Assembly (NCBI RefSeq): GCF_003334785.1
Contig: NZ_QOWV01000008.1
Reading direction: 5' to 3' (one strand)
Length of the DNA: 64,000 nt
Source of the DNA: Escherichia coli
GTDB lineage: Bacteria > Pseudomonadota > Gammaproteobacteria > Enterobacterales > Enterobacteriaceae
Shown here: positions 45,830 to 48,555 of the stretch, piece by piece
Layout: each line of letters begins with the position of its first letter
How positions within the stretch are numbered: the stretch's first letter is position 1
Position numbers and translations under genes: made by a program
The notes under the pieces: model-generated
Seen by the model: the letters and a program-made list of their open reading frames with translations, nothing else
What the model was told of the DNA's origin: nothing
Database searches by the model: none

Positions 45830-46124
45830 CTCTAGATCTCTTTTTTGCCTGCAAGCCCGGGTAATGCGCACACAAGTTCTGCTTAATCGATTGAAAAAAC
45901 ATCTTTTTTTTAAAGATGTGTTCGATGCTGTGTACCTGTGCTCACAGAGGTCTACTTTTTCGCGAAAACGTAGATCTCTACCGCCCAACGAAAAGCATGA
46001 AAGCGATCACGAATCCCATTGGGTCGTCATGTTCTGCCGATCGCATCTTCCTATCCTCGCTCCAGGCCTGCCGCATAACCAATCAGGCTTCCTACTTACA
46101 GAATTGAGAAAAGAGGATGTGGAA

Positions 46125-47741
46125 ATGCTCAGTCAAATTCAACGCTTTGGCGGCGCGATGTTCACGCCAGTGCTGCTGTTTCCCTTCGCCGGGATTGTGG
46201 TGGGTCTTGCCATCTTGCTGCAAAACCCGATGTTTGTCGGGGAATCACTGACCGATCCGAACAGTTTATTCGCGCAAATCGTACACATTATTGAAGAGGG
46301 CGGTTGGACGGTATTCCGTAATATGCCGCTGATTTTTGCTGTCGGTTTACCCATTGGCCTTGCTAAGCAAGCGCAGGGGCGTGCTTGTCTGGCGGTGATG
46401 GTGAGTTTCCTGACCTGGAACTATTTCATCAACGCGATGGGAATGACCTGGGGAAGCTACTTCGGCGTCGATTTCACTCAGGACGCGGTGGCAGGTAGCG
46501 GTCTGACAATGATGGCCGGGATTAAAACCCTCGATACCAGCATTATCGGCGCAATTATCATTTCCGGCATTGTGACGGCGCTGCATAACCGTCTGTTCGA
46601 TAAAAAACTGCCGGTTTTTCTCGGCATTTTCCAGGGGACGTCTTATGTGGTGATTATCGCCTTCCTGGTGATGATCCCCTGTGCCTGGCTGACGTTGCTC
46701 GGCTGGCCAAAAGTACAAATGGGGATTGAATCTCTGCAAGCGTTCCTGCGTTCGGCGGGTGCACTTGGGGTCTGGGTTTACACCTTCCTCGAACGTATTC
46801 TGATCCCAACCGGTTTACACCACTTCATCTACGGACAGTTTATCTTTGGTCCGGCAGCTGTTGAAGGCGGCATTCAGATGTACTGGGCGCAGCATCTGCA
46901 AGAGTTCAGTTTGAGCGCCGAGCCGCTGAAATCGTTGTTCCCGGAAGGCGGTTTTGCCCTGCACGGTAACTCAAAAATCTTTGGTGCCGTGGGCATTTCT
47001 TTAGCGATGTACTTCACTGCCGCACCGGAAAATCGGGTAAAAGTGGCGGGCTTGCTGATTCCCGCAACCTTAACCGCCATGCTGGTGGGAATTACCGAAC
47101 CGCTGGAATTTACCTTCCTGTTCATTTCACCGTTGCTGTTTGCGGTACACGCCGTGCTGGCGGCCTCAATGTCGACCGTAATGTATCTCTTTGGTGTGGT
47201 GGGCAACATGGGCGGAGGTCTGATTGACCAGGTTTTACCGCAAAACTGGATCCCGATGTTCAGCAACCACGCGGATATGATGCTGACCCAAATCGCCATT
47301 GGGTTGTGCTTTACCCTGCTGTACTTCGTGGTTTTCCGCACACTGATTCTGCAGTTCAACATGTGCACGCCGGGACGTGAAGATGCGGAAGTGAAACTCT
47401 ACTCAAAAGCCGAATACAAAGCCTCGCGAGGCCAAACCACCGCGGCAGAGCCAAAAAAAGAGCTGGATCAGGCTGCCGGTATCCTGCAAGCCCTGGGCGG
47501 GGTCGGCAATATCTCCAGCATTAACAATTGCGCGACGCGTTTACGTATTGCACTGCATGACATGTCACAAACGCTGGATGACGAAGTCTTTAAAAAGCTG
47601 GGAGCGCACGGCGTCTTCCGTAGTGGCGATGCCATTCAGGTGATCATTGGTCTGCATGTATCTCAGCTGCGTGAACAGCTCGATAGCTTAATTAATTCTC
47701 ATCAATCAGCAGAAAATGTTGCCATTACGGAGGCAGTATAA
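46125..47741 (+). CDS. glvC: PTS alpha-glucoside/arbutin-like EIICB; uninterrupted 538 codons here
   Basis: Starts [13 protein letters not shown] after SD aagagga; IIC motifs GLHH and GITEPLEF; C-terminal IIB with CATRLR; the ORF track start at 45864 is an upstream artefact. Confidence 0.8.
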
Positions 47742-48555
47742 TGACCAAATTCTCAGTGGTTGTCGCAGGCGGTGGAAGCACCTTTACGCCAGGCATCGTG
47801 TTGATGCTCCTGGCGAATCAGGACCGTTTCCCGCTTCGTGCACTGAAATTTTATGATAACGATGGTGCGCGGCAGGAAGTGATTGCCGAAGCCTGTAAAG
47901 TCATCCTTAAAGAAAAAGCGCCGGACATTGCGTTTAGTTACACCACCGATCCTGAAGTGGCATTCAGCGACGTTGATTTTGTCATGGCGCACATCCGCGT
48001 CGGCAAATACCCGATGCGCGAACTGGATGAAAAAATCCCGCTGCGCCACGGCGTTGTTGGTCAGGAAACTTGCGGACCCGGCGGAATAGCGTACGGCATG
48101 CGTTCCATTGGCGGCGTCCTGGAACTGGTGGATTATATGGAAAAATATTCACCAAATGCCTGGATGCTCAACTACTCCAACCCGGCAGCCATTGTCGCAG
48201 AAGCCACGCGTCGTCTGCGCCCGAATGCGAAAATCCTCAACATCTGTGACATGCCAATCGGTATTGAAAGCCGGATGGCGCAAATTGTTGGGCTGCAAGA
48301 TCGCAAACAGATGCGCGTGCGCTACTACGGCCTGAACCACTGGTGGTCGGCGATATCCCGCAGTTTCAGAAAGGGTTAATGAGTCAGCAAGTGGCGGTGG
48401 AAAAACTGGTCGTGGACGCCTGGGAACAGCGTTCATATCAGCACCTGTGGCAGGCGATTACGTTGTCGAAAACGGTACCGAGCGCCTCGGTCGCCAAAGC
48501 TATTCTGGATGAGTTGCTGGAGGCCAACAAAGCGTACTGGCCAGAGTTACGTTAA
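47741..48555 (+). pseudogene. glvG: GH4 6-phospho-glucosidase remnant glvG (frameshifted and C-terminally truncated)
   Basis: 212-aa N-terminal ORF ([18 protein letters not shown]) followed by a 70-aa out-of-frame fragment; intact GH4 enzymes are about 440 aa. Confidence 0.8.

Follow-up and report, generated by a model that had tools for sequence, protein, structure and literature searches.

The glvCB gene and its product

The window analyzed here, a stretch of 64,000 nucleotides from Escherichia coli (assembly GCF_003334785.1, contig NZ_QOWV01000008.1), contains the glv locus, which is composed of glvCB, encoding a predicted enzyme IICB (EIICB) of the phosphotransferase system (PTS), and of the remains of glvG, a gene for a 6-phospho-alpha-glucosidase of glycoside hydrolase family 4 (GH4). 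Positions are those of the window, and glvCB and the glvG remnants lie on its plus strand. As read from the list of open reading frames (ORFs) and from the sequence, glvCB (46125-47741) runs unbroken over 538 codons from the ATG at 46125 to the TAA at 47739-47741, and neither a stop nor a frameshift, the two lesions that an earlier note on this DNA had named as grounds for doubting the frame, lies between 46125 and 47741. The same note had read the ORF as a glucose-family IIC domain followed by a C-terminal IIB domain with the motif CATRLR, and the family model TIGR02005 and the motifs described below bear out this reading. An alternative start at the ATG at 45864, which opens a 625-codon ORF, was rejected as an in-frame upstream extension through the divergent yidP-glvC intergenic region. 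Four observations support the start at 46125: RefSeq annotates the identical DNA from this position, the alignment to TIGR02005 opens at residue 2, the first 10 residues are shared with the Klebsiella orthologue, and a Shine-Dalgarno-like AGAGGA (46111-46116, read from the sequence) stands 8 nt 5' of the start codon.

TIGR02005, the model for alpha-glucoside PTS IIBC proteins, matches GlvCB with 954.7 bits (E=9e-288; curated cut-off, 607.3) over residues 2-523 of the protein and positions 1-524 of the 524 in the model, so that a chance match is not at issue; the glucose-specific NCBIfam model reaches 312 bits, below its cut-off of 591.8. IIC and then IIB are found in a single polypeptide: the NCBIfam matches are to IIBC models only, a cluster representative 99% identical to GlvCB contains PF02378 and PF00367 (EIIC and EIIB), and no IIA domain was detected by Pfam on this representative or by NCBIfam. 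The glucose-family motifs are in place, namely GLHH (residues 230-233; 46812-46823), GITEPxEF in the form GITEPLEF (residues 322-329; 47088-47111) and the cysteine of CxTRLR (Cys469) in CATRLR (residues 469-474; 47529-47546), the IIB phosphorylation-site motif that aligns with CITRLR of PtsG, with the caveat that a P238Q substitution follows right after GLHH. The linker TPGRED occupies residues 415-420, and a hydropathy scan together with alignment to the PtsG structure 8QSR places the last predicted transmembrane helix of IIC at residues ~386-408 (47280-47348). The gene is also linked to one for a GH4 6-phospho-alpha-glucosidase, a remnant in the window and intact in 1,653 E. coli genomes. 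From these sequence features we identify GlvCB as an alpha-glucoside-specific PTS EIICB of the AglA/GlvC/MalP type; the historical 'arbutin-like' label is supported neither by the TIGR02005 assignment nor by the linked alpha-glucosidase. A public protein collection records the exact protein (WP_000952141.1 in RefSeq) for at least 1,000 contigs. Clusters of EIICB proteins at 90% identity, both from E. coli and from Klebsiella, also contain 440-aa 6-phospho-alpha-glucosidases, presumably a clustering artefact arising from fused or mis-called ORFs across the overlapping stop and start codons of glvCB and glvG (ATAATG).

A 508-bp deletion in glvG

Downstream of glvCB, the GH4 gene is represented by two ORFs at 47741-48379 (212 aa) and 48343-48555 (70 aa, in another frame), which agree in length and frame with the pieces that had been described as a decayed hydrolase gene in the earlier note. 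Alignment to the intact 1,323-nt glvG of E. coli O157:H7 EDL933 showed that a clean deletion has removed 508 bp between two GAACCACT copies; the junction copy of this microhomology (48334-48341) ends the 5' remnant. This remnant (47741-48341) encodes native residues 1-200 of the 440-aa GH4 6-phospho-alpha-glucosidase and keeps the motifs GGGS (residues 10-13), NICDMP (167-172) and GLNH (197-200). Residues ~201-370, the YLKYY region among them, are deleted, and the 3' remnant (48342-48555; formerly ysdC), made up of the final ~70 ancestral codons, is out of frame because 508 bp is not a multiple of 3. The two pieces score 96.8 and 20.1 bits with NCBIfam, far under the cut-offs, and the 70-aa piece aligns to positions 359-429 of the 432-position GH4 model. 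A GH4 6-phospho-alpha-glucosidase would be expected to be a complete polypeptide of ~440 aa that unites an N-terminal NAD-binding region and Cys-Asp and His metal/catalytic motifs with the C-terminal half, and the window does not encode one. RefSeq lists glvG on the identical DNA as a pseudogene flagged 'frameshifted', and the remnant is the already known K-12 pseudogene glvG/ysdC. Judged from the state of the gene, the hydrolysis step is impossible at the glv locus of the window.

Codon 369 and the glvC/glvB split of K-12

The window and K-12 MG1655 (3,845.7-3,909.7 kb, reverse strand) share 99.98% identity over 64 kb; relative to MG1655 the window has 11 single-nucleotide polymorphisms (SNPs), an indel of 1 bp and a deletion of 158 bp. 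Exactly one base of the glv locus differs, with C at 47229 in the window and T at 3,862,499 of MG1655 (same strand), which makes codon 369 (47229-47231) a CAG (Gln) in the window and an amber TAG in MG1655. The annotation of NC_000913.3 lists glvC (368 aa) and glvB (161 aa, from Met378) separately, with a 24-nt gap between them, and the earlier note had mentioned such a separate listing; in K-12-type genomes the PGAP/RefSeq label is 'internal stop'. The split is real, because MG1655 has TAG where the window has CAG, and it is due to an amber mutation, neither to the frameshift for which the earlier note had suggested an alignment nor to a merely historical annotation of an identical sequence, against which it had also warned.

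The amber codon lies inside IIC, upstream of the last predicted helix and of the linker, and the K-12 'GlvB' therefore consists of the last transmembrane helix, the linker and IIB, with residues 369-377 lost. Gln369 is conserved in 136/136 homologues with an identifiable surrounding motif, and the fused form of EIICB is present in Klebsiella, Enterobacter, Citrobacter and E. albertii. The fused EIICB is the species-typical form, and the K-12 'genes' glvC and glvB represent a single gene that a lineage-specific amber has cut in two, within IIC rather than at a domain boundary. K-12 strains with supE44 (glnV44) place Gln at UAG, and textbook genetics indicates that they would restore the wild-type residue at codon 369. 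A human faecal isolate, LR-64-2, is 100% identical to the window across 24.9 kb, and its RefSeq annotation shows an intact glvCB ORF (WP_000952141.1); the window is from a natural E. coli strain that is not K-12 but very near to it.

Distribution of glv alleles in E. coli

Alleles were counted over 5,426 complete E. coli genomes with allele-specific 55-mers, in which a central mismatch abolishes every 28-nt megablast seed. A 3.6-kb query covering the locus matched 5,419 of these genomes; the locus is absent from about 1,150 (for example, ST131), which leaves ~4,274 that bear it. CAG at codon 369 was found in 3,926 genomes and TAG in 348. The 60 TAG carriers among the matches listed include MG1655, DH5alpha, BW25113, J53, HB101 and comparable genomes in the 4.5-4.7 Mb range, and these 60 of the 348 appear to be K-12 laboratory derivatives. 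Intact glvG was detected by its internal segment in 1,653 genomes, and about 2,640 have the exact junction of the deletion. Coverage of the junction 55-mer was not discriminating, as BLAST joined the two pieces even where glvG is intact, and the deletion count was therefore taken from the class with at least 99% identity (2,643) and from the complement 4,274-1,653 (~2,620). An open glvCB next to a deleted glvG, as in the window, is the commonest configuration of the locus (roughly 2,270 genomes). The Q238 allele was found in 1,792 genomes. Touchon et al. placed glvC among the variably present genes (PMC2617782), which is consistent with some lineages lacking the locus, and the B2 lineages lack the whole glv locus. 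The novelty that the earlier note had implied for an intact fused ORF is not supported: such an ORF is the normal state in E. coli and is already annotated.

Polymorphism of glvCB in strains that keep or lack glvG

Polymorphism was compared in 23 natural genomes spread along the identity ranking, 13 with the glvG deletion and 10 with intact glvG; glvCB is open in 13/13 and 10/10 of them, respectively. Within-group piN/piS and the polymorphism of the glvG remnant (10 synonymous and 5 nonsynonymous sites) are confounded by polymorphism shared or recombined between the groups, and we therefore counted sites private to each group. Seven nonsynonymous and 7 synonymous sites are private to the deletion group, compared with 3 nonsynonymous and 37 synonymous sites private to the intact-glvG group (Fisher p=0.0015; odds ratio about 12-fold), and 1 nonsynonymous and 17 synonymous sites are shared. 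Neutrality predicts 71-76% nonsynonymous changes, against which 7/14 is marginally low (p=0.03-0.09) and 3/40 overwhelmingly low. The coding sequence of glvCB thus appears to be under relaxed, near-neutral constraint where glvG is deleted. Only about 0.4 nonsense mutations are expected among 14 neutral substitutions, so that the open frame in all sampled deletion strains is not evidence of selection.

Codon 238 (46836-46838), five residues after GLHH, is CAG in the window and encodes a derived Gln (P238Q). Proline occupies this position in 131/139 homologues, in PtsG and in all retrieved homologues from outside E. coli, and every Gln is in E. coli. The carriers of P238Q comprise the window, K-12, and 8/13 of the sampled deletion genomes versus 1/10 of those with intact glvG. 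A search of the PDB with a short fragment for the equivalent of residue 238 in bcMalT gave an alignment that ended at GLHH. Two further and independent lesions of glvCB are the K-12 amber and an IS5-like element (ISKpn26 family) in strain CFS3292, whose locus otherwise matches that of the window exactly; the element lies in the 3' end of glvCB (L029 2615-3841) and makes the ORF about 9 codons shorter.

Several points weigh against decay of glvCB. The sample is small (23 genomes), the statistics ignore phylogeny, and recombination between the deletion and intact groups is evident from the 17 shared synonymous sites. The ORF is open in every natural deletion strain sampled, which could reflect retained selection. 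The exact GlvCB protein of the window also occurs beside an intact glvG, in strain Ec-U7, and P238Q therefore need not be disabling.

Flanking genes and intergenic region

Divergent from glvCB lies yidP (45113-45829, minus strand), which encodes a GntR/HutC-family regulator according to the RefSeq annotation of the identical DNA and NCBIfam matches to the GntR family, and which is presumed to regulate the glv operon. The yidP-glvCB intergenic region (45830-46124) was examined by a repeat search and a promoter scan and holds a palindrome of 17+17 nt without spacer at 45946-45979 (AGAGGTCTACTTTTTCG/CGAAAACGTAGATCTCT, 88% complementary), a plausible candidate for a YidP operator. A crude consensus scan of 45700-48800 for sigma-70 promoters returned 0 sites, compared with 2.6 expected from shuffles; terminator-like matches in the scanned region were at chance level (4 seen, 4.2 expected), and no Rfam family was found in 45000-49600. 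On the other side, yidL (48552-49445, minus strand; AraC-family regulator by RefSeq and NCBIfam AraC-family matches) is convergent with glvG and overlaps its end by 4 nt.

Some strains with intact glvG depart from the window in these neighbors. In MLI023K2 and 300490, both African stool isolates, yidP is frameshifted and ~79 bp shorter (L020 14-651 and L028 14-651), so that the presumed regulator is lost with transporter and hydrolase intact; of the 3 private nonsynonymous changes of the intact-glvG group, 2 are found in L028. Ec-U7 and E143 retain only a 75-nt fragment of yidL, at which the match to the window stops (L019 and L027, 3961-4035), and this suggests that their lineages have another downstream junction.

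Farther out, the 158-bp deletion relative to MG1655 falls at 51260-51274 of the window (within the ORF at 49612-51564), with ~15 bp of overlapping alignment at its flanks. It removes the 3' end of yidK and the 5' end of yidJ and leaves a 650-codon yidK-derived ORF; RefSeq marks both genes as partial in LR-64-2, and the deletion seems to be common, since all 25 best-matching natural genomes have equal length there. The gene dgoK (2-dehydro-3-deoxygalactonokinase) has a 1-bp deletion relative to MG1655 at 35587 and is 'frameshifted' in the RefSeq annotation of LR-64-2; the majority of the other close matches exceed the window in length by 1 bp.

Interpretation and alternatives

We consider it very probable that the window holds an ordinary non-K-12 allele of the glv operon, in a natural strain near K-12, and that its glvCB has begun a slow decay and is probably cryptic. 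By analogy with the family, a phosphoryl group would pass from EIIA-Glc (Crr) to Cys469 in the IIB domain of GlvCB, the IIC domain would import and phosphorylate alpha-glucosides such as sucrose isomers and methyl-alpha-glucoside, as the literature on AglA/GlvC suggests, and GlvG would, by homology, then hydrolyze the imported 6-phosphates. An old microhomology-mediated deletion of 508 bp, widespread in the species, has destroyed this NAD+/Mn2+-dependent GH4 enzyme, and K-12 has gained in addition the CAG to TAG change at codon 369 that underlies the annotated 'glvC' and 'glvB'. The hydrolase was the first to be lost; the transporter then appears under relaxed constraint, and individual lineages, K-12 included, lose it outright. 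The earlier note had pictured a transporter without its hydrolase, importing a sugar that cannot be cleaved; the first part stands as a description of the locus, whereas on the second the evidence favors relaxed constraint, and the operon is probably silent and drifting to loss rather than engaged in such import. The glv locus shows on a small scale how an operon decays step by step and is of little importance beyond housekeeping.

It is unlikely that GlvCB is instead functional and under selection in the glvG-deletion strains, feeding another enzyme or a phosphatase or serving in uptake or signaling. Such a function would fit the ORF being open in 13/13 natural deletion genomes, the identity of the window protein with that of the intact-glvG strain Ec-U7, the private ratio of 7:7, nominally under the neutral ~73% nonsynonymous (p=0.03-0.09), and a report in which overexpressed K-12 glvCB was among the transporters that sensitized cells to aminoglycosides (PMC12412646). 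The ratio of nonsynonymous to synonymous private sites is nevertheless ~12-fold above that of intact-glvG strains by odds ratio (p=0.0015), the ~0.4 nonsense mutations expected in 14 substitutions predict an open frame even in an unselected gene, P238Q replaces an invariant Pro, the scan for a consensus promoter found none, the gene is lost altogether in K-12 and CFS3292, and B2 lineages are without the locus (PMC2617782). Somewhat less likely again is the more specific proposal that an open glvCB has been kept without its hydrolase in >2,000 genomes for a hydrolase-independent role, be it alpha-glucoside sensing, uptake coupled to a phosphatase or another hydrolase, or incidental drug uptake; if it were true, P238Q would represent adaptation to another specificity and not damage.

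That the K-12 split is an artefact of annotation, or that the window comes from K-12 itself and owes its codon 369 to a sequencing error or to reversion, might be suggested by the 99.98% identity to MG1655, and we give it almost no credence: the base is T in NC_000913.3, RefSeq reports an 'internal stop', TAG recurs in 348 independently sequenced genomes, and the window differs from MG1655 by 10 other SNPs, the 1-bp indel and the 158-bp deletion and matches LR-64-2 exactly over 24.9 kb. The MG1655 base, the genome counts and the LR-64-2 match refute it. Separate IIB and IIC polypeptides occur in other PTS families, and the two-gene state of K-12 could on this precedent be a natural functional split from which the fusion in the window derived; this, too, is virtually certain to be wrong, as the amber falls inside IIC, 'GlvB' from Met378 carries a membrane helix, residues 369-377 are lost, Gln369 is present in 136/136 homologues and the fusion recurs in Klebsiella, Enterobacter, Citrobacter and E. 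albertii. Conservation of Gln369 and the topology together refute this reading.

Comparison with known systems

The solved structure nearest to GlvCB is that of the E. coli glucose EIICB PtsG (8QSR, 196 bits), which shares its fold and domain order and in which GLHH, GITEPxEF, the KTPGRED-type linker and CxTRLR align, but which belongs to a different specificity subfamily. The same locus is known from E. coli K-12 as glvC (b3683), glvB (b3682) and the glvG pseudogene (b4556, formerly glvG and ysdC), with the same neighbors (yidE-yidP and yidL-yidK) and the same 508-bp deletion of glvG; K-12 differs in having TAG, a 368-aa GlvC and a 161-aa GlvB in place of the CAG and the single 538-aa protein of the window. 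The orthologous operon of E. coli O157:H7 EDL933 (EIICB, WP_000952127.1; 6-phospho-alpha-glucosidase, WP_000160122.1) has the same gene order, and its EIICB differs from that of the window solely at residue 238 (P versus Q in the window), whereas its GlvG is intact (440 aa; 1,323 nt) and the window lacks 508 bp of the gene.

Outside E. coli, the alpha-glucoside EIICB AglA of Klebsiella pneumoniae is 81% identical to GlvCB of the window, aligns with it colinearly from end to end and shares all of its motifs. Intact E. coli GlvG matches the AglB-type 6-phospho-alpha-glucosidase structure (PDB 6DUX) with 912 bits and GlvA of Bacillus subtilis (1U8X) with 747 bits. AglA/AglB are reported to use the host EIIA-Glc and to allow growth on sucrose isomers and isomaltose (PMC5309279, citing Pikis 2006, Thompson 2001); in contrast to this system, a working hydrolase is missing from the window, and residue 238 is Q instead of P. 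The more distant GlvC (MalP) and GlvA of B. subtilis follow the same operon logic, an EIICB without IIA accompanied by a GH4 6-phospho-alpha-glucosidase, and are active in maltose use (PMC5309279). Uptake and phosphorylation of alpha-glucosides that depend on PEP and EIIA-Glc are known only from the Klebsiella and Bacillus homologues (PMC5309279). When K. pneumoniae AglA/AglB and B. subtilis GlvC/GlvA were expressed in E. coli, crr-dependent import followed by hydrolysis was demonstrated, and the K-12 homologues were described as seemingly cryptic or truncated (PMC5309279).

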